This document shows positions 48,867-57,413 of a stretch of DNA of 64,000 nucleotides, one piece after another. The translations under genes were made by a program, and so were the position numbers. Positions within the stretch are counted from its first letter, which is position 1; every line of letters begins with the position of its first letter. Source of the DNA: an uncultured Pseudobutyrivibrio sp. Its GTDB lineage: Bacteria; Bacillota; Clostridia; Lachnospirales; Lachnospiraceae. The stretch covers positions 397 through 64,396 of the forward strand of contig CAMJBT010000007.1 of assembly GCA_946403965.1 (NCBI GenBank), given 5' to 3'. The notes under the pieces are model-generated. The model saw only the letters and a program-made list of their open reading frames with translations, did not search any database and was not told where the DNA came from.

Positions 48867-49391
48867 TTACTTGCCGTCGTAAGAAACTACGGATGCGACG
48901 TCGTATTTTGCAAGCTTCTCGCGTCCGTTGAGTCCCTTAAGCTCCATAAGGAACACAATTTTGGCAACTTCGCCACCAAGCTGCTCAACAAGCTCACAGG
49001 CTGCCTCGATTGTACCACCTGTAGCAATAAGATCATCTACGATAACAACCTTCTGTCCTGGCTTTACAGCATCCTTGTGCATTTCGATTGTAGCTGTACC
49101 ATATTCAAGATCGTATGTTTTCTCTATAGTTTCGCATGGAAGCTTGCCCTTCTTACGAATAAGCACAAATGGCTTTCCAAGTGCATACGCAAGTGGCGCA
49201 CCGAAAATAAAGCCACGGCTCTCAGCTCCTGCTATAACATCACAATCAACACCCTCAAGAAGCTTCTTCATCTCGTCGATTGCGAGCTTGAAGCCGTCTG
49301 CATCCTGAAGAATGCTTGTAACATCTCTAAACATAATACCTGGCTCTGGAAAATCCGGAATAGTTCTTATGTAGTCTTCTACTTTTTTCAT
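48867..49391 (-). CDS. apt: Adenine phosphoribosyltransferase
   Basis: PDFPEPGI.FRD, ESRGF, RKKGKLP and VDDLIATGGT motifs. Confidence 0.97.
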   Translation of the reverse strand: MKKVEDYIRTIPDFPEPGIMFRDVTSILQDADGFKLAIDEMKKLLEGVDCDVIAGAESRGFIFGAPLAYALGKPFVLIRKKGKLPCETIEKTYDLEYGTATIEMHKDAVKPGQKVVIVDDLIATGGTIEAACELVEQLGGEVAKIVFLMELKGLNGREKLAKYDVASVVSYDGK

Positions 49392-49479
49392 TTAAAACTC
49401 CTTCTAAATGTAAAGCACCATATTTTTCCATTCAGGAAGGTGCAAACAATAGTTGGATAAATAGGCATTATCCTTATTA

Positions 49480-49508
49480 ATTATATAGGTTTTATTTCAT
49501 TTTTACAA
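49480..49508 (-). promoter_or_regulatory. SigmaA promoter of apt
   Basis: TTGTAA-N17-TATAAT. Confidence 0.75.
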
Positions 49509-49537
49509 GTGGGGCTAAATACAGTTTCAAACATAGT

Positions 49538-49561
49538 AAAAATGGGGCCCCGAAGGACCCC
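49538..49561 (-). terminator. Intrinsic terminator of fla1
   Basis: GGGGUCC-UUCG-GGGCCCC-AUUUUU. Confidence 0.88.
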
Positions 49562-49609
49562 AATTTGTGGATAGTACCGTTAAAGTACCGATGCGTTTGG
49601 CCACGCTAA

Positions 49610-51115
49610 CTACTGAAGAAGTGAAAGAACACCCTGTGTTGACTGATTTGCTTGAGCGAGCATTGACTGGCCTGCCTGAGCAAGAATATTGTTCTTGCTG
49701 TATGTAACCATTTCATCAGCCATATCTGTATCACGAATTCGAGATTCAGATGCTTCTGTGTTCTCTACTACATTATCAAGATTTGCGATTGAGTGCTCGA
49801 GTCTGTTTTGTATAGCACCAAGACCTGATCTTTGAGCAGATACCTTTGCAAGGGCGTCTGCGATTGAGTCGATTGCGTAAGTTGCTGCCTTACCTGTGGC
49901 GTCACTAACGTTTAGTCCCTGGATGCCAAGTGCTGTTGCGCTCATGCATTCGATTGTTACACCAATCTTGTTTGTCATATCAGCATCAGAGCCAACATGA
50001 AGATTGAATGAAAGGTCTTTCTGGACTGTTGCTGAACCTTTTTCGATTCTGAACTCTACCTTTACAGGTGGATCTGTCTTCACATCATCTGGCAACTTAC
50101 CATTTACTTTATCAGTGTCCTGTGTTGGATCTGTATCATCGAATGTATTATCACCTATCTTTGCAGTTGGAATTTTGATGATTGAATCACATCCAATTGA
50201 TGAAGCTGCTCTAAGTTCATTTGCCATAAGCTGATATGCCTTCGCTGCTGTAATAACTGTTGCATCCTTGTCATCAACACCATCATCTGGTTCCTTCGCG
50301 TCTGCTGTGCTGAATAAAACTGCAACCTTACCATTGTACTCAATTGTTGAGCCCTGGCTTGCGAACTTGTTAAGGTGTGATGCCTTAACCTCTGATGTAT
50401 AAGCGTTAGTCTCAGTAGAAATAGTAAATGACTTACCATCAATCTTTACTACTTCACCTACTGTAAGATGAGGTTCAGCACTTTCCTCTGCAGATGTTCC
50501 TAGAACAGTTAAGGCATTTGCTAACTGGGTAGTAGGATCATCACCTCCAACACCGATTGTATACTTTGTACCACCAATTGTTACTGTGTCACCCATTGCA
50601 AGAGCATTGATGGTGAAAGTAGCTGTTGTTGTGTTCTGTGTAAGTGTGCCTGCAAGACCTGCGTCATGAGCTGCAATAACTTGTGTCTTGGTGCCGTAGT
50701 CCCCCTTGAGAAGATAGGTCTCGTTGAACTTTGTCGTTTCAGAAACTCGATCAATCTCAGTTGTAAGCTGTAAAATCTCATCCTGAATAGATGAGCGGTC
50801 ACTTTCTGAGTTTGTTCCGTTTGCTGCCTGGACTGCCAACTCATTCATTCTCTGAAGCATTGAATGTACCTCTGTAAGGGCACCTTCGGCGGTCTGTACT
50901 GCTGAGATACCATCTGATGCGTTTGTTGATGCCTGATCAAGACCTCGAATCTGCTTGCGCATTTTCTCAGAAATTGAAAGACCTGCTGCATCGTCTGCGG
51001 CTCTATTAATTCTAAAACCAGATGAAAGTTTCTCAGTAGATTTAGACTGAGCATTTGTTGTAATTCCTAACATTCTTGAAGCATTAGCTGCCTGCATATT
51101 GTGTTGTACTACCAT
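49610..51115 (-). CDS. fliC: Flagellin (fla1), 501 aa
   Basis: Conserved N-terminal (RINRAADDAAGL) and C-terminal (LGAIQNRLE, SRIRDTD) D0/D1 regions. The true start is ATG 51115 after AAGGAGG, not 51268. Confidence 0.97.
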   Translation of the reverse strand: MVVQHNMQAANASRMLGITTNAQSKSTEKLSSGFRINRAADDAAGLSISEKMRKQIRGLDQASTNASDGISAVQTAEGALTEVHSMLQRMNELAVQAANGTNSESDRSSIQDEILQLTTEIDRVSETTKFNETYLLKGDYGTKTQVIAAHDAGLAGTLTQNTTTATFTINALAMGDTVTIGGTKYTIGVGGDDPTTQLANALTVLGTSAEESAEPHLTVGEVVKIDGKSFTISTETNAYTSEVKASHLNKFASQGSTIEYNGKVAVLFSTADAKEPDDGVDDKDATVITAAKAYQLMANELRAASSIGCDSIIKIPTAKIGDNTFDDTDPTQDTDKVNGKLPDDVKTDPPVKVEFRIEKGSATVQKDLSFNLHVGSDADMTNKIGVTIECMSATALGIQGLNVSDATGKAATYAIDSIADALAKVSAQRSGLGAIQNRLEHSIANLDNVVENTEASESRIRDTDMADEMVTYSKNNILAQAGQSMLAQANQSTQGVLSLLQ

Positions 51116-51119
51116 AATT

Positions 51120-51161
51120 TCTACCTCCTTGTAGATACTCTTGTGATTCCATTCATAAGAG
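51120..51161 (-). promoter_or_regulatory. Tandem CsrA-type hairpins in the fla1 leader
   Basis: CUCUU..AUGGAA..AAGAG, then UCUAC-AAGGAG-GUAGA with the SD in the loop; same architecture as Bacillus hag. Confidence 0.8.
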
Positions 51162-51463
51162 ATGCGATGAACGCATAACATAAAATTTAAAGTTTCAATG
51201 ATTAGGAATGCTACATACTTTAGGCTGCATCCGTATCTATATAACAAGGGAGTGACCAACCTCCGCATGCTACCAAAGGAAGAAATCTCACTATTTTCTG
51301 AACTGCTTGGTCTCAGAAAATAACGAGCAGTAGTATAACAGCTTTATTAAATTGTAAAGCTACGATTCAGTAGTAACTCTTCCGCGCGATAGATGAAAAA
51401 TTACCACCTGGAAGGACAACAAAAACTTGATAAATTTAAGTTTACTGTTTCCATCTACTTTAA

Positions 51464-51490
51464 TTATCGGAATAGGGGGGAAAAACTTTA
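51464..51490 (-). promoter_or_regulatory. Sigma28 (SigD/FliA) promoter of fla1
   Basis: TAAAG-N14-TCCGATAA. Confidence 0.85.
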
Positions 51491-51501
51491 GAACAAAATA
51501 G

Positions 51502-51533
51502 AAAAAAAGAGGACCTCCCGAAGGAAGTCCCCT
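51502..51533 (-). terminator. Intrinsic terminator of fla2
   Basis: GGGGACUUCC-UUCG-GGAGGUCCUC-U7. Confidence 0.9.
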
Positions 51534-51607
51534 AATTTACTAGTATTTAAACTAGTCTGCGCGAAACGATTAACTGGATTCTAACTAATCAAAAACTAAT
51601 TGCTAGA

Positions 51608-53077
51608 TTATCCAAGGATTGATAATACGCCCTGTGTTGACTGGTTAGCCTGTGCAAGCATTGCCTGACCTGCCTGCTGAAGAATGTTATTCTTGCTGTA
51701 GTTAACCATTTCATCTGCCATGTCTGTATCACGGATACGTGATTCAGAAGCATTTGTATTCTCAACTACGTTGTCTACGTTAGCGATTGTGTGCTCTAAT
51801 CTGTTCTGGATAGCACCGAGTGAAGATCTCTGTGCAGATACCTTTGAAACAGCGTCAGCGATTGCATCGATAGCGTATGTAGCAGCTTTACCTGTAGCAT
51901 CAGCAACATTAAGTCCCTGAATACCAAGTGAAGCAGAGCTCATGTCTGTGATTGTAACGCCAATCTTGTTTGTCATATCAGCGTCAGAACCAACATGAAG
52001 GTTGAATGTAAGGTCATTCTGAACTGAAGCCTCACCCTTTGTCATTGTGAAGGTTACTTTGTTGTCCTTCATATCAGCTGGTAACTGGTTATTGTAGTCA
52101 GCCTCTTTATATGATGCACTTGTGCCACCTTCATCAATTGATCCTTTAGTTGGCGCTTTAATAACTTCATCTGCTCCAATTGAAGAAGCTGCACGAAGTT
52201 CATTTGCAATAAGTTCATAAGCCTTATCAGCTGTGATAAGTGTTGAATCCTTCTCATCAACACCATCTTTAGGACCATCTTCTTTGTTAAATAATGTTAC
52301 TGACTTACCGTTGTACTCAATTGTTGAGCCCTGGCTTGCAAAGAGATTAAGCTGTGTTGCAGCAACTTCTGATGTATCAGCATTTGTAGTTTTAGCAATA
52401 GTAAATGACTTTCCATCAATCTTAACTACTTCACCAATCTCCAAATCATCCTCAGATGTGCCAAGAACTGTAAGACCATTTGCGAGCTGCTTATCAGGAT
52501 CATCACCAGCTACACCAATTGTGTACTTTGTACCACCGATTGTGTATGTATCGCCCATTGCAAGAGCATTCATTGTAAATGTAGCTGTTGTGGTGTTCTG
52601 TGTAAGTGTTCCTGCAAGACCTGCATCATGAGCAGCGATCTTGATTGTCTTTGTACCATAATCGCCCTTAAGAAGATAGGTCTCGTTGAATTTTGTTGTC
52701 TCAGCAACACGGTCAATTTCTGTTGTAAGCTGATTAATTTCGTCCTGGATAGAAGAACGATCAGACTCACTGTTTGTTCCGTTTGCTGCCTGTACTGCAA
52801 GCTCGTTCATTCTCTGAAGCATTGAGTGAACTTCTGTTAAAGCACCTTCAGCTGTCTGCACTGCAGATACACCGTCCTGAGCATTTGTAGATGCCTGATC
52901 AAGACCTCTAATCTGCTTGCGCATCTTTTCTGAAATTGAAAGACCAGCTGCGTCATCAGCTGCACGGTTAATCTTAAAACCAGATGCTAACTTCTCTGTT
53001 GACTTAGACTGATTTCCTGCTGTGATGTTGAGCATTCTTGAAGCATTGGATGCTTGCATATTGTGTTGTACTACCAT
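51608..53077 (-). CDS. fliC: Flagellin (fla2), 489 aa
   Basis: Flagellin termini as in fla1; AAGGAGG RBS. Confidence 0.97.
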   Translation of the reverse strand: MVVQHNMQASNASRMLNITAGNQSKSTEKLASGFKINRAADDAAGLSISEKMRKQIRGLDQASTNAQDGVSAVQTAEGALTEVHSMLQRMNELAVQAANGTNSESDRSSIQDEINQLTTEIDRVAETTKFNETYLLKGDYGTKTIKIAAHDAGLAGTLTQNTTTATFTMNALAMGDTYTIGGTKYTIGVAGDDPDKQLANGLTVLGTSEDDLEIGEVVKIDGKSFTIAKTTNADTSEVAATQLNLFASQGSTIEYNGKSVTLFNKEDGPKDGVDEKDSTLITADKAYELIANELRAASSIGADEVIKAPTKGSIDEGGTSASYKEADYNNQLPADMKDNKVTFTMTKGEASVQNDLTFNLHVGSDADMTNKIGVTITDMSSASLGIQGLNVADATGKAATYAIDAIADAVSKVSAQRSSLGAIQNRLEHTIANVDNVVENTNASESRIRDTDMADEMVNYSKNNILQQAGQAMLAQANQSTQGVLSILG

Positions 53078-53082
53078 AAAAT

Positions 53083-53125
53083 TCTACCTCCTTGTAGATA
53101 CTCCCGTGGATTCCTTTCCTGGGAG
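53083..53125 (-). promoter_or_regulatory. Tandem CsrA-type hairpins in the fla2 leader
   Basis: CUCCC-AGGA-AAGGAA-UCC-ACGGGAG, then UCUAC-AAGGAG-GUAGA. Confidence 0.8.
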
Positions 53126-53174
53126 ATGTGATTCGGGTAAATGCTGTGAATCACAACTTTTTTCCCTCGTCACA

Positions 53175-53265
53175 TGTTAACAATTACTAACCGCTATCCA
53201 GTAGCTAACTGAATAACTATCTATAATCAACACAGTACTCGCGCGACATACTGCATGACTATCGC
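53175..53265 (-). ncRNA. Candidate cis-regulatory RNA (H-type pseudoknot plus P3 stem) in the fla2 leader
   Basis: GCGAUA-GUCAUG-CAGUA-UGUCGC-GCGAG-UACUG, followed by a UGUUGAU/GUUAACA stem; compensatory changes relative to the fla3 copy. Confidence 0.6.
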
Positions 53266-53499
53266 TTTATTATTTCTCGTAAATCAAGAAATCAAAACAA
53301 ACTAGTAGTAAACATAATTAGTATTTAATTGTGAATGTACAATTGATAAATGGAAATAAAAACTTGAAATTATTCATCGATCCTTAACATCCTTGTTCTG
53401 TATCGAAATAGATATTTAAATGATGTTTGTAAATCTCAGATAATGAAGTCCTTTTCATTTATCTTTGGTGTGTGCCAGGTAGATAATTTAAATCCTTAT

Positions 53500-53712
53500 C
53501 TCATCCTTGCAAATTTAATATCGGATGACTTTCTTAAAACTTAACCCCTTTTTAGAAAATTTTTTATTATTTTTTATTTCATTCTAAATGCTTAGGTCAA
53601 GCTTGATTTATGGGGGTGTTATTTTTGCCCCTCATCACCCTTGCAATCTATATATCGGAAGCTCTGTTATAAACTTAACCCCTTTTTAAAAAAATTTTAT
53701 TTTTATATCTAA
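53500..53712 (-). repeat. Direct repeat (two units 134 bp apart), each carrying a sigma28 promoter
   Basis: TTAAG-N14-TCCGATAT at 53518-53544 and 53652-53678; identical aaacttaacccctttttA core and shared ccttgcaa. Confidence 0.85.
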
Positions 53713-53740
53713 AAATATTATTTTCCCTGTCTGCACACCC

Positions 53741-53774
53741 AAAAAGGACCTCCTTTATAATGAAGGAGGCCCTT
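53741..53774 (-). terminator. Intrinsic terminator of fla3
   Basis: AAGGGCCUCCUU-N7-AAGGAGGUCCUU plus a U-run. Confidence 0.88.
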
Positions 53775-53877
53775 GAATTAAGCTTATATTTCTAGTCACG
53801 GGAAAATTGGTTAATTATTCTTGAATGTTTCATTTAAATCATTCTCAAGAATTCTACACTATTAAATTATGGTTTCT

Positions 53878-55344
53878 CTACCCCAAGATAGAAAGTACTC
53901 CCTGAGTAGACTGGTTAGCCTGAGCAAGCATAGCCTGACCTGCCTGAGCAAGAATATTGTTCTTGCTGTAGTTAACCATTTCTTCTGCCATATCTGTATC
54001 ACGGATACGTGACTCAGATGCATTTGTATTCTCAACTACGTTGTCTACGTTTGCAATTGTGTGCTCTAATCTGTTCTGAATAGCACCAAGCGAAGATCTC
54101 TGTGCAGATACCTTTGAAACAGCGTCAGCGATTGCATCGATAGCATATGTAGCAGCCTTACCTGTAGCATCAGAAACGTTAAGTCCCTTAATACCAAGAC
54201 CTGTAGAGCTCATATCTGTAATTGTAACTCCAATCTTATTTGTCATGTCAGCATCAGAACCAACATGAAGGTTAAATGTAAGGTCATTCTGAACTGTAGC
54301 TTCACCCTTTGTAAGAGAGAACTCAACAGTCTTATCTTTTACATCGGTAGGCATCTTTCCATTTGAATCAGTTGCATTAGCTGCTGCTGATGCAGTTCCA
54401 GTACCAACTTTAATTGTTCCATCTTTAACAGCTGTTGTTGCTCCAATGTTTGAAGCAGCCTTAAACTCATTCAAAATAAGATTATATGCCTTTTCCTCAG
54501 TAATAAGCTGTCGATTATTCTTATCAACACCATCACTAGGAGCCTTACCTGATGCTTCACTAAATAATGTTACAGACTTTCCATTGTACTCAATAGTAGA
54601 TCCCTGACCAGCAAATGTGCCAATCTCATCTTTCTTTACTTCTGCTGTATCAGAATTTGTTTTATCAGCAACTGTAAATGACTTACCATCAATCTTAATT
54701 ACTTCGCCATCATCAAGATTGTCTGCACCTAATACTTTAAGTGCATTTTCAAGTTGCTTTTCCTTGTTATCTCCAGAAACACCAATTGTGTACTTTGTTC
54801 CACCAATTGTATAGCTGTCGCCCATTGCCAACTGATTCATTGTAAATGTAGCCTTTGATGTATTCTGAGTAAGTGTTCCATCAAGACCTGCATCATGAGC
54901 TGCAATTTTGATAGTCTTTGTGCCATAGTCACCTTTTAATAGGTATGACTCGTTAAACTTTGTTGTCTCAGCAACACGATCGATTTCAGTTGTAAGCTGG
55001 TTAATTTCATCCTGGATAGAAGAACGATCTGACTCACTGTTTGTTCCGTTTGAAGCCTGAACTGCAAGTTCATTCATTCTCTGAAGCATTGAATGAACTT
55101 CTGTAAGAGCACCTTCAGCTGTCTGCACTGCAGAAACACCATCCTGTGCATTTGTAGAAGCCTGAGAAAGACCTCTAATCTGCTTACGCATCTTTTCTGA
55201 AATTGAAAGGCCAGCTGCATCATCTGCTGCGCGGTTAATCTTAAATCCGCTTGCCAACTTTTCAGTTGATTTTGCCTGGCTTCCAGAAGTGATGTTAAGC
55301 ATTCTTGAAGCGTTACTTGCCTGCATGTTGTGTTGTACTACCAT
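53878..55344 (-). CDS. fliC: Flagellin (fla3), 488 aa
   Basis: Flagellin termini as in fla1; AAGGAGG RBS. Confidence 0.97.
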   Translation of the reverse strand: MVVQHNMQASNASRMLNITSGSQAKSTEKLASGFKINRAADDAAGLSISEKMRKQIRGLSQASTNAQDGVSAVQTAEGALTEVHSMLQRMNELAVQASNGTNSESDRSSIQDEINQLTTEIDRVAETTKFNESYLLKGDYGTKTIKIAAHDAGLDGTLTQNTSKATFTMNQLAMGDSYTIGGTKYTIGVSGDNKEKQLENALKVLGADNLDDGEVIKIDGKSFTVADKTNSDTAEVKKDEIGTFAGQGSTIEYNGKSVTLFSEASGKAPSDGVDKNNRQLITEEKAYNLILNEFKAASNIGATTAVKDGTIKVGTGTASAAANATDSNGKMPTDVKDKTVEFSLTKGEATVQNDLTFNLHVGSDADMTNKIGVTITDMSSTGLGIKGLNVSDATGKAATYAIDAIADAVSKVSAQRSSLGAIQNRLEHTIANVDNVVENTNASESRIRDTDMAEEMVNYSKNNILAQAGQAMLAQANQSTQGVLSILG

Positions 55345-55347
55345 ATA

Positions 55348-55390
55348 TCTACCTCCTTGTAGAAAGTTTCCGAGAATCCTTTCCCGGAAA
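55348..55390 (-). promoter_or_regulatory. Tandem CsrA-type hairpins in the fla3 leader
   Basis: UUUCCGGGAA-AGGA-UUCUCGGAAA, then UCUAC-AAGGAG-GUAGA. Confidence 0.8.
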
Positions 55391-55405
55391 GTGCCAAACG
55401 CACCC

Positions 55406-55490
55406 TTGGTTAATAAATACCCCTGGCTTATGTTTTAAACATAAAGCCCTTAACCAACAGTACTCCCGTGATATACTGTCCTGTTATCAC
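55406..55490 (-). ncRNA. Candidate cis-regulatory RNA (H-type pseudoknot plus P3 stem) in the fla3 leader
   Basis: GUGAUA-ACAGGA-CAGUA-UAUCAC-GGGAG-UACUG, followed by a UUGGUUAA/UUAACCAA stem. Confidence 0.6.
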
Positions 55491-55643
55491 GTTATAAAAA
55501 ATTACCTTACAGATGCTCGCTCATTCATCTGTAACATTATAATAACATCTTTTTCTGAAATTAACAGATATTTCACTAAATGTTCATACTTTTAGGGTTA
55601 ACTTTCTTTCGAAATTCACGACAGATTTTTCCTTGCAACAACT

Positions 55644-55680
55644 AAAAAAAGCATACTCCGGAACAAATCCTAGAGTATGC
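55644..55680 (-). terminator. Intrinsic terminator after znuB
   Basis: GCAUACUC-N14-GAGUAUGC-U7. Confidence 0.8.
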
Positions 55681-55780
55681 CTCTTCTTTTAATGACTTCT
55701 CATGACCCACTTAATAAAAAAGCCCAAAAGAACCACTGTATTTACTTGTCTTTAAAAGTCACCCCTGTTCTAATCTGACT

Positions 55781-56584
55781 TTATCGATCCTTACCATATA
55801 TATATGTGGCAAAATAAATCACGCTTGCCACTATTACAATCATTGGACCTGTTGCCATATCTGTGAAGTAAGAAACAAACAAACCGCACACACCAGAGAA
55901 CACACTAAAGATAATAGAAAAGTAAGTGTACTCTCTAAAGTTCTCTGAAATATTTCTACTGCTTGCTGCTGGCAAAATCAGTAACGCATTAATAAGAAGG
56001 ATTCCAACCCACTTTATAGAAAGCATTACAAGAAGTGCAATCAGCACTGCAAAAGCATCTTCCATCACTCTAACAGAAATACTACGGCTTTTTGCAAGTG
56101 TTGCATGAATACTAATCGCTGTAAGTCTATTGATGCTGATGCACCAAAAAACCATAATCACTACAAACAAAATCACCAGCTGAATTATTTCCTTTACAGT
56201 GATAGATAAAATATCACCTACCAAGATTGCAGAATAATTGCTGAAGCTTCCTCCTCTGGAAAGAATCGCAAGGCCAAGCGCAGTAGCGCAGCTGGCAAAA
56301 ACCGAAATCAAGGTATCAGAAGAACTTAAGCCCTTTCTACTTATATAATTAAGAAGAAGTGCAAAACAGATTCCAAATATTATCATTGAGACTGTGGTAT
56401 TTGAAATCCCCATTATCACTCCTGCCGCAATTCCTGTAAGTGCTGAGTGACCAAGAGCATCGCTGAAATATGCCATACGCTTTTGGACAATCATAGTGCC
56501 TACTGTACCAAAAAGTGGAGAAATCAGAAGAATGGCTATTGTAGCCCTAATCATAAAGGTGTAACTAAACATTTCGCTAAACAT
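55781..56584 (-). CDS. znuB: Zn/Mn ABC transporter permease
   Basis: AYFSDALGHSALTG and LLINALLILPAA motifs. Confidence 0.9.
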   Translation of the reverse strand: MFSEMFSYTFMIRATIAILLISPLFGTVGTMIVQKRMAYFSDALGHSALTGIAAGVIMGISNTTVSMIIFGICFALLLNYISRKGLSSSDTLISVFASCATALGLAILSRGGSFSNYSAILVGDILSITVKEIIQLVILFVVIMVFWCISINRLTAISIHATLAKSRSISVRVMEDAFAVLIALLVMLSIKWVGILLINALLILPAASSRNISENFREYTYFSIIFSVFSGVCGLFVSYFTDMATGPMIVIVASVIYFATYIYGKDR

Positions 56585-57413
56585 TGTCAGTCACCTCCTT
56601 GCTCTTCTTTTCAGTATCTGCCCCTTCTTTATTCAAAGCTGTTGTACCCGATGAGGCACCTTTTGTGCTATCCAATTTCCCGGTAGCTCCATTTCCGAAA
56701 ACAGATTTGAAAGCATCTGTTTCATATACAAGCCTTGGACGTCCGGCTGCTGTAACAGTCTTGTCTATAAGAATTACATTATCTGCATATTTGTATACAT
56801 AATCCAAGTCATGACTCACAAGAATGATTGCCAAATCGTGAGTCTCCTTTAAGTATTTCATCTTCTCATAGAAAGCATCCATACCATTTTTATCAATTCC
56901 AGAAACAGGCTCATCTAATAATAGAAGGTTTGGTGTATCATGCACCGCCATAGCTAAAAGCACTCTCTGAAGCTGTCCGCCGGAAAGTGTACCTACTGGC
57001 TGATCTATAAGCTCTGCTACATCAAACTCTGCCAAAGCTTCTCTTACATGCTCATGTTCCTTTTTGCTATTAAAAAGGATTGGTAGCTTTCCTGTAAATG
57101 ACTGGAACAAATCATACACAGAAAGAGGTGTTGTCCTGTCGATATTAACGGTTTGTGGCACATACCCTATCTTTAGACTAGGCATGTTGTTATTCATTTT
57201 ATTTTTGAATTGAATCTCGCCAGTATATGGCACTTCACCAAGAATAGCCCTGACAAGCGTAGACTTGCCCGCTCCATTTCTACCGACGATAGCTGTCATT
57301 TGTCCACAATGCACATGCAAATTGATATTGCTCAATACCTGCTGGTCACCAAACGCCACACCCAAGTTATTAAATTTTATGCAGTGAAAACCACATGGAA
57401 TTATTTTTTTCAT
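56577..57413 (-). CDS. znuC: Zn/Mn ABC transporter ATPase
   Basis: GRNGAGKST, LSGGQ, LDEP and VSHDL motifs. Confidence 0.9.
   Translation of the reverse strand: MKKIIPCGFHCIKFNNLGVAFGDQQVLSNINLHVHCGQMTAIVGRNGAGKSTLVRAILGEVPYTGEIQFKNKMNNNMPSLKIGYVPQTVNIDRTTPLSVYDLFQSFTGKLPILFNSKKEHEHVREALAEFDVAELIDQPVGTLSGGQLQRVLLAMAVHDTPNLLLLDEPVSGIDKNGMDAFYEKMKYLKETHDLAIILVSHDLDYVYKYADNVILIDKTVTAAGRPRLVYETDAFKSVFGNGATGKLDSTKGASSGTTALNKEGADTEKKSKEVTDNV

Follow-up and report, generated by a model that had tools for sequence, protein, structure and literature searches.

A conserved leader hairpin in Pseudobutyrivibrio flagellin genes and the putative pairing of its loop with the 3' untranslated region

The genome of an uncultured Pseudobutyrivibrio sp. 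(GenBank assembly GCA_946403965.1) contains three flagellin genes in tandem, fla1, fla2 and fla3, and a similar short segment recurs in the leaders of fla2 and fla3. The window analysed here, that is the whole stretch of 64,000 nucleotides from contig CAMJBT010000007.1 (positions 397 to 64,396), includes the array, and the question arose of which RNA structure is conserved in these leaders and with what it may interact. The original prediction was an H-type pseudoknot of two helices, S1 and S2, followed by a stem P3. Its letters and its segment lengths of 6-6-5-6-5-5 were borne out on the minus strand in fla2 (GCGAUA-GUCAUG-CAGUA-UGUCGC-GCGAG-UACUG, 53265-53233) as well as in fla3 (GUGAUA-ACAGGA-CAGUA-UAUCAC-GGGAG-UACUG, 55490-55458), and this 33-nucleotide pattern has just these two copies in the 3.44-Mb assembly. 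Homologous leaders confirmed that a conserved structured RNA element is present in both flagellin leaders. The element is very probably a single conserved hairpin of about 36-40 nucleotides, here named HP1, in the 5' leaders of Pseudobutyrivibrio flagellin messenger RNAs (mRNAs), and its loop is complementary to an element in that same gene's 3' untranslated region (3'UTR).

Homologous leaders were searched for by BLAST and with a covariance model (CM), R1, built from 20 sequences. The genomes of the genus together with metagenomic and assembly contigs gave 57 matches, representing 42 distinct homologous leaders. By BLAST and R1, HP1 was found in 26 of 34 Pseudobutyrivibrio genomes, and R1 detected it in none of 150 other genera of Lachnospiraceae; all support given below is comparative and comes from this one genus. 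The two copies in the window are composed as follows.

53223-53262, minus strand: HP1 of fla2, a long imperfect hairpin, recognised by the minimum free energy (MFE) structure of the leader, by R1 (64.5 bits) and by covariation
53262-53256 with 53229-53223, minus strand: basal stem of fla2 HP1, AUAGUCA with UGAUUAU
53253-53249 with 53237-53233, minus strand: apical stem of fla2 HP1, identical to S2, CAGUA with UACUG
53238-53248, minus strand: 11-nucleotide loop of fla2 HP1, UGUCGCGCGAG, near-invariant among fla2-type leaders
55451-55486, minus strand: HP1 of fla3, R1 48.8 bits
55486-55483 with 55454-55451, minus strand: basal stem of fla3 HP1, UAAC with GUUA
55478-55474 with 55462-55458, minus strand: apical stem of fla3 HP1, CAGUA with UACUG
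55473-55463, minus strand: loop of fla3 HP1, UAUCACGGGAG

HP1 is built from the apical stem S2, an internal loop beneath it and then an AU-rich basal stem, and in fla2 this long hairpin is the MFE structure of the leader (-13.5 kcal/mol). On the MAFFT alignment A1, the hairpin was paired in 95.5% of the cells and five pairs were changed on both sides (20 cells). On the CM alignment of the 42 distinct sequences, 97.2% of the cells were paired with double changes in six pairs (41 cells), and none of 500 shuffles came as high; a CM alignment is biased towards its own structure, and the MAFFT alignment concurs. S2 was paired in 100% of the cells across the 42 homologues, and three of its five pairs were changed on both sides (CAGUA/UACUG, CAGCA/UGCUG, CAGUG/CAUUG and GGUA/UACC). 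As a helix S2 thus stands, but as the apical stem of HP1 and not as a helix of a knot. The basal stem co-varies too, with AUAUC/GAUAU, AUAUUC/GGAUAU and AUAAUAA/UUAUUAU as variants elsewhere. The stems hold 46 G.U cells compared to 3 A.C cells, indicating a structure specific to the mRNA strand. The most conserved portion of HP1 is its 11-nucleotide loop.

A scan of positions 49000-57000 against Rfam 15 gave no match of any family, riboswitches included, to either hairpin at E<=10, and literature searches uncovered neither RNA elements of Pseudobutyrivibrio flagellin genes nor pairing between flagellin 5'- and 3'-UTRs. HP1 is apparently an undescribed leader RNA element at both positions. For the riboswitch and thermosensor roles suggested before, nothing was found in favour, HP1 being a single hairpin that has no conserved multi-helix pocket.

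The other helix of the proposed knot, S1 (GCGAUA/UGUCGC in fla2), behaved differently from S2. Coaxial stacking of S1 on S2 would give a sensor for a ligand, temperature or a protein, or a block to 5'-3' exonucleases, and it is true that both copies in the window can form the 6 + 5 base pairs with identical segment lengths, that the local MFE structure of fla3 includes the S1 hairpin and that at least five contiguous S1 pairs can be formed by 13 of the 42 homologues. However, only 73.1% of the S1 cells were paired in the 42 homologues, and not one pair was changed on both sides. All six pairs are possible in 5/42, 21/42 have at most three contiguous pairs, the outer pair fails to form in 27 of 41 sequences, and most sequences lack the outer two pairs. 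Matches of 6 bp like that of S1 arise somewhere in the 37 nucleotides upstream in 4-6% of mononucleotide shuffles. The change from C-G to U-A, which had been read as compensatory, is weak, because U is the commonest base at this 5' position even where its partner is still G (UG 14, CG 10, UA 2). In at least seven sequences the third loop position is C (UGCC...) and the S1 partner remains A, giving an uncompensated A.C, while G is found at the partner column only where the loop retains U, which is the opposite of compensation. In the closest relative, genome G017, such A.C mismatches break S1 in both orthologues (fla2-type UCGAUA/UGCCGC and fla3-type GUGAUA/UACCAC). Moreover, S1 and the co-varying basal stem compete for the same AUA nucleotides, and in fla2 S1 alone (-6.6 kcal/mol) and S2 alone (-2.3 kcal/mol), the two component helices by whose separate energies the pseudoknot was judged, are outweighed by the long hairpin of -13.5 kcal/mol. 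We consider the H-type pseudoknot very improbable. The 5' arm of S1 is listed for completeness.

53260-53265, minus strand: S1 5' arm GCGAUA, not counted as a functional helix, its AUA being part of the basal stem

The word at this arm upstream of HP1, (G/T)NGATA(A/T/G)T, bears a slight likeness to the -10 box of a sigma-28 or sigma-A promoter and was also considered as such. It was rejected: no consistent -35 box or spacing accompanies it, the sigma-70 scan was empty there, and its nucleotides show covariation with the basal stem's 3' strand.

The stem P3 fared no better. Complementarity is present at both sites.

53232-53226 with 53181-53175, minus strand: P3 of fla2, UGUUGAU with GUUAACA, which encloses a lineage-specific insert and is a local possibility
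55457-55450 with 55413-55406, minus strand: P3 of fla3, UUGGUUAA with UUAACCAA

In the 17 short leaders used for P3 and for the consensus of the proximal leader, P3 was paired in 75.5% of the cells with no double change, 500 of 500 shuffles were as high, and it was absent from the RNAalifold consensus of these leaders.

The 3' arm of S1 is the 5' half of the 11-nucleotide HP1 loop, and it was the sequence conservation of this loop that made S1 look real. The evident partner of the loop, judged from the compared sequences, is the 3'UTR of its own gene, in which the following elements are located.

51555-51566, minus strand: fla2 3'UTR element UUUCGCGCAGAC, predicted to be single-stranded, 42 nucleotides past the stop codon
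53796-53803, minus strand: fla3 3'UTR element UCCCGUGA, predicted to be single-stranded, the 8-nucleotide exact complement of UCACGGGA (55471-55464) in the loop

An element of this kind is 7-9 nucleotides long, single-stranded by prediction and located ~25-30 nucleotides upstream of the terminator and ~1.7 kb from the loop. Both elements of the window are predicted to be unpaired with structured neighbours on either side; that of fla2 lies directly 5' of a small hairpin (GACUAG-N8-CUAGU), which is followed by the terminator. The loop nucleotides GUC-GCGCGA of fla2 are complementary to the fla2 element (duplex of -14.8 kcal/mol), and the fla3 loop forms a duplex of -14.6 kcal/mol with its own 3'UTR. 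Within the fla2 mRNA, TCGCGC is confined to two places, the loop and the 3'UTR element, and TCCCGTGA occurs on the fla3 strand of the 64-kb window just once, at the fla3 element. Among the homologues, loops and elements fall into these classes.

Fla2-type genes (the majority): loop GUC-GCGCGA, 3'UTR UCGCGC(A)GAC, core GCGCGA/UCGCGC
Fla3 of the window: loop UCACGGGA, 3'UTR UCCCGUGA, 8 bp
Fla3-type gene of G017: loop CACGCGA, 3'UTR UCGCGUG
Fla3-type genes of G011, G007, G049 and UC1225 and two metagenomic fla3-type genes: loop CGCACGA, 3'UTR UCGUGCG

Covariation between loop and 3'UTR was analysed in 24 distinct gene units, in which both parts were concatenated. The six core pairs were paired in 144 of 144 cells; three of them carried double changes, two of the type G-C to A-U and one of the type C-G to G-C, and one-sided changes were absent. 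The score of the core was reached by 0/500 shuffles, and slid registers were paired to 1-72%. Wherever a unit combines a UGUCGCGCGAG-type loop with a separate 3'UTR, the homologous site of that 3'UTR gives a duplex of -11.7 to -14.8 kcal/mol, and the three fla3-type loops favour their own 3'UTR (-12.6 to -14.6 kcal/mol) over the others (-4.5 to -10.0 kcal/mol). The G to A change in the loop, which had earlier been taken as compensation within S1, is matched exactly in the 3'UTR; on these alignments a partner at a distance of 1.7 kb seems to account for it better. In G006 the change of loop U3 to C is matched by A to G in the 3'UTR, and G041 has a U.G in the pairing. A pattern scan of metagenomes gave 14 true matches, every one of a loop class already known, and among further homologous flagellin contigs there was one G.U variant and no class beyond those known. 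Taken as a comparison of sequences, the data make selection for complementarity between the HP1 loop and the 3'UTR of the same gene probable, and we think it rather likely that the loop indeed pairs with the 3'UTR of the same mRNA in a long-range 5'UTR-3'UTR interaction. S1, where it can form as in the two genes of the window, would occlude the loop and so could compete with the 3'UTR pairing in these particular genes.

On one metagenomic contig (L195), the first gene past the ABC-3 gene was found to be chimeric: a fla2-type leader with the loop UGUCGCGCGAG is combined with a fla3-like 3'UTR element, AUCGCGUG, and pairing is preserved by one G.U wobble.

On DNA, loop and 3'UTR element are inverted repeats, alike within one gene and unlike from paralogue to paralogue; a match of this kind is required in the crossover core of recombination partner sites, and the arms CAGTA...TACTG give the 5' site a palindromic look. 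The repeats could thus be recombinase sites that make a gene invertible, as in phase variation, or operators of a DNA-binding regulator. This we regard as hardly credible. The wobbles between loop and 3'UTR are compatible with RNA pairing, not with identity at the DNA level, and the 46 G.U pairs of the stems would read as A.C at the DNA level or on the opposite strand. Furthermore, the flanks of the two sites are unlike, the pairing tolerates a bulge as well as wobbles, all of the ~45 gene units examined have a single orientation and no recombinase gene is among the flagellin neighbours.

The fla2-type loop includes an 8-nucleotide palindrome, UCGCGCGA, and it is conceivable that the loop is bound by a protein or dimerises through its self-complementary CGCGCG as a kissing loop, the 3'UTR being a second copy of the motif and the pairing incidental. 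Retroviral hairpins of the dimerisation initiation site (DIS) type have palindromic loops and form kissing-loop dimers, and HP1 shares with them a 6-nucleotide GC palindrome in the loop, few unpaired flanking nucleotides and a short stem. In the same vein, a hairpin loop that shows CGCGCG and has no partner in the 3'UTR is present in fla1-type leaders and in those of a middle-gene type, and related hairpins of other genera display the palindrome CCUAGG. Unlike in DIS-type hairpins, however, the three classes of fla3-type loops (UCACGGGA, CACGCGA and CGCACGA) are not palindromic and yet keep a complementary partner in the 3'UTR. Fla3-type 3'UTRs hold the reverse complement of the loop and not the same word, which neither a shared motif nor a homodimer predicts. 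We judge this explanation to be quite improbable.

The leader of fla1 itself has, at about 51379-51412 (minus strand), a 10-bp hairpin GUAAUUUUUC/GAAGAGUUAC with the loop AUCUAUCGCGCG, and the word AUCGCGCGG is conserved among fla1-type leaders of relatives. No element complementary to this loop was found in the fla1 3'UTR; owing to its CGCGCG palindrome the fla1 loop could pair with loops or 3'UTRs of the fla2 type.

If loop and element are to meet in one molecule they must be on the same transcript. For fla2 and fla3, this is suggested by promoter-like and terminator-like sites.

49610-51115/51268, minus strand: fla1, Flagellin_N and Flagellin_C domains
51608-53077, minus strand: fla2, Flagellin_N and Flagellin_C domains
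53878-55344, minus strand: fla3, Flagellin_N and Flagellin_C domains
53519-53542, minus strand: proximal sigma-28-like promoter of fla2 (AAGTTT-N12-CCGATA), from a motif scan
53653-53676, minus strand: second sigma-28-like site before fla2, from a motif scan
55536-55564, minus strand: sigma-A-like promoter of fla3 (TTAATT-N17-TATAAT), read from the sequence
51508-51533, minus strand: predicted intrinsic terminator of fla2
53749-53766, minus strand: predicted intrinsic terminator of fla3

The window has three sigma-28-like sites (0.03 expected), one before fla1 and two before fla2. HP1 of fla2 lies ~250 nucleotides downstream of the proximal one, and HP1 of fla3 begins ~40 nucleotides downstream of the predicted transcription start; the sigma-A-like promoter is kept in the fla3-type genes of G017, G007, G011, G049 and G043. 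Both copies of HP1 are, therefore, within predicted 5' leaders, and the sites put HP1 and 3'UTR element on one presumed transcript.

An alternative in trans has to be weighed here. The element, the small hairpin and the terminator could be released as a small RNA (sRNA) that acts on HP1 and so provides paralogue-specific feedback. The layout of a single-stranded 5' seed, a small hairpin and a rho-independent terminator is typical of 3'UTR-derived sRNAs, there is a weak partial similarity to the Listeria sRNA sbrA and the covariation is equally compatible with pairing in cis and in trans. Neither a conserved promoter nor a known processing site was found upstream of the element, however, the distance from stop codon to element varies from 19 to 124 nucleotides with non-conserved sequence in between, and specificity for the own gene is most simply explained in cis. 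Thus, an sRNA acting in trans is unlikely, if less so than the knot or a kissing loop. The similarity to sbrA is a sub-threshold Rfam match at 51502-51558 (minus strand; 29.4 bits, gathering score 45) that covers only the small hairpin and the terminator of the fla2 3'UTR and is probably a generic likeness of one hairpin plus terminator to another.

For pairing in cis, the following course can be envisaged. The 11-nucleotide loop of HP1 (UGUCGCGCGAG in fla2, UAUCACGGGAG in fla3) would be displayed for pairing with the 3'UTR element of its own gene, and the pairing would form in cells, most likely intramolecularly. It might then modulate the access of RNases and the lifetime of the mRNA, by analogy with the duplex of hbs, or, alternatively, couple access and lifetime to a CsrA-controlled translation initiation region downstream. 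A mechanism by mRNA stability, for which this analogy speaks, is possible and is put forward tentatively; protection from RNases, proposed before as a property of the knot, would plausibly come from the 5'/3' pairing instead.

For duplexes of 5'- and 3'-UTR, Firmicutes offer precedents in hbs and icaR, to which the pairing proposed here comes closest. In Bacillus subtilis hbs, a 14-bp duplex of 5'- and 3'-UTR modulates cleavage of the leader by RNase Y (Braun, Durand and Condon 2017, PMC5737220). Hbs has in common with the flagellin genes that a Firmicute expresses a monocistronic mRNA highly, that the duplex, a putative one in the flagellin mRNAs, joins the 5' leader to a segment of the 3'UTR just 5' of the terminator and that a strong Shine-Dalgarno sequence is located downstream. 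Differences are that the hbs duplex of 14 bp is formed by linear segments over a mapped RNase Y site (PMC5737220) whereas 6-9 bp would be formed with a hairpin loop here, and that hbs rests on experiment and the flagellin pairing on covariation; between the two there is no sequence similarity. In Staphylococcus aureus icaR, translation is blocked when a motif of the 3'UTR binds the Shine-Dalgarno region in the 5'UTR of its own mRNA (Ruiz de los Mozos et al. 2013, PMC3868564). The proposed flagellin pairing shares with icaR that a 3'UTR motif is joined to the 5'UTR of the same mRNA, but the target here is the HP1 loop and not the Shine-Dalgarno region, which places the flagellin pairing outside the icaR-type subclass: the loop is 115-180 nucleotides upstream of the Shine-Dalgarno sequence, and the latter has a hairpin of its own.

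This hairpin belongs to the proximal part of the leader.

53083-53125, minus strand: proximal leader of fla2 with hairpins HP3 and HP4, a consensus structure with covariation in 17 leaders
55350-55395, minus strand: proximal leader hairpins of fla3, with GGA motifs and a Shine-Dalgarno hairpin

Downstream of HP1, the 17 leaders have three co-varying hairpins in common, two of which present GGA motifs; the GGA-presenting loop reads AGGAAAGGAAU. HP3 of fla2 is CUCCC-AGGAAAGGAAUCCAC-GGGAG with GGA motifs in its loop, and in HP4, UCUAC-AAGGAGG-UAGA, the loop AAGGAGG holds the Shine-Dalgarno sequence together with a GGA motif. A csrA gene is encoded in the genome (G000:C101, CsrA 92.4 bits). From this layout, the proximal leader is probably a control module of the CsrA/FliW type, with predicted binding of CsrA. 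Like the flagellin leaders of the CsrA-FliW systems of B. subtilis (hag), Campylobacter jejuni (flaA) and Clostridioides difficile (fliC) (PMC6529632, PMC4894983, PMC8523840), it has GGA motifs in proximal hairpin loops and a csrA gene at hand. HP1 differs from that module in lacking a GGA motif and is placed upstream of it, and in the literature searched no 3'UTR partner was described for leaders of CsrA-FliW systems.

Several observations weigh against the proposed pairing of loop and 3'UTR. The compensatory events are only three or four independent ones, all in one genus, and most units have the same palindromic core, by which complementarity and similarity become indistinguishable. The middle-gene type (G015, G022, G024 and L200) has an HP1 variant with the loop GUGGCGCGCGU without a 3'UTR partner, and the tandem array on the metagenomic contig L199 lacks a separate 3'UTR element as well as a terminator. 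HP1-like hairpins with the loop AACCUAGG in other genera are mostly without a visible 3'UTR partner, so some other ligand of a more general kind may exist for the loop. The fla2 loop is also able to pair with some fla3-type 3'UTRs through G.U. Finally, the start sites, the 3' ends and the duplex itself are deduced from sequence features.

Some of these cases are of interest in their own right. The middle flagellin gene (L058-L060, L200, L201; G022, G015, G024 and metagenomes) has the variant stem ACAG/CUGU and a 3'UTR without the CGCGC element. In L199, flagellin genes are ~120 nucleotides apart with HP1 directly after the stop codon, and the array, to judge from this spacing, is apparently co-transcribed. 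Among the other Lachnospiraceae flagellin loci examined, the HP1-like hairpin with the AACCUAGG loop was found in few close genera only. These leaders (L159/L190 of G106; L161 and L191 of G071; L162 of G165; L163 of G101) share the AU-rich basal stem (GGUAAUAAU.../...UUAUUAUAAA) with HP1 but have a different conserved loop, AA(C/U)CCUAGG(G), which contains another 6-nucleotide palindrome, and were missed by R1. In G106, both flagellin 3'UTRs open with UAAUCUAGGUU, a 7-nucleotide complement of the loop, while no 3'UTR partner of the loop was seen at the flagellin loci of G071, G165 and G101; with a complement in G106 alone, the 5'/3' pairing is not generalisable to other Lachnospiraceae.

To our knowledge, experimental demonstrations of end-to-end pairing within bacterial mRNAs are limited to very few genes, such as hbs and icaR, and pairing of bacterial 5'- and 3'-UTRs is rarely backed by evolutionary covariation. 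The HP1 loop would most likely add to these rare interactions a case with unusually clean covariation, as the duplex has survived at least three double substitutions of the compensatory kind between paralogues and between species. Its host mRNAs are presumably among the most abundant of the cell and already have a control module of translation of the CsrA type. From the pairing one could learn how individual control of each flagellin gene is achieved in bacteria that have several. A more doubtful extension is that each flagellin paralogue has its own matching address, a pair of HP1 loop and 3'UTR element, and that HP1 is the genus-specific version of a wider, undescribed family of flagellin-leader hairpins in Lachnospiraceae. 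If it were true, each mRNA would close on itself or answer only to the RNA derived from its own 3'UTR, giving a paralogue-specific post-transcriptional choice of flagellin on top of the shared CsrA module, and the wider family would be marked by short loops that are rich in GC or palindromic (CGCGCG in Pseudobutyrivibrio and CCUAGG in the other genera).

The tandem array of fla1, fla2 and fla3 is flanked by a zinc ABC transporter and by housekeeping genes; the neighbours encode the zinc ABC transporter, a phosphoribosyltransferase and TrmO. At least two further flagellin-like genes are present in the same genome (G000:C29:1624-3102 and G000:C45:16647-17132), of which the former is 64% identical to fla2 and has a sigma-28-like promoter, but neither HP1 nor the 3'UTR element. 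The sigma-28-like promoter block of fla2 is present twice (AAAAAGGGGTTAAGTTT...CCGATAT...TTGCAAGG.TGA), from which a leader of about 440-580 nucleotides is predicted. Two features of its distal part are kept in relatives, namely ACAAGGAUGUUAAGGAUCG, in which GGA occurs twice, and a small hairpin rich in A and U. In some relatives (L016/L045, L013/L042, L005/L034 and L055), a GGAGG and a mini open reading frame starting with ATG (e.g. ATGGTCATTAGATGGCCACTCATAGCAAGTGA) are inserted directly 5' of HP1 and in one case run into it; the reading frame may be a leader peptide or the remnant of an insertion.

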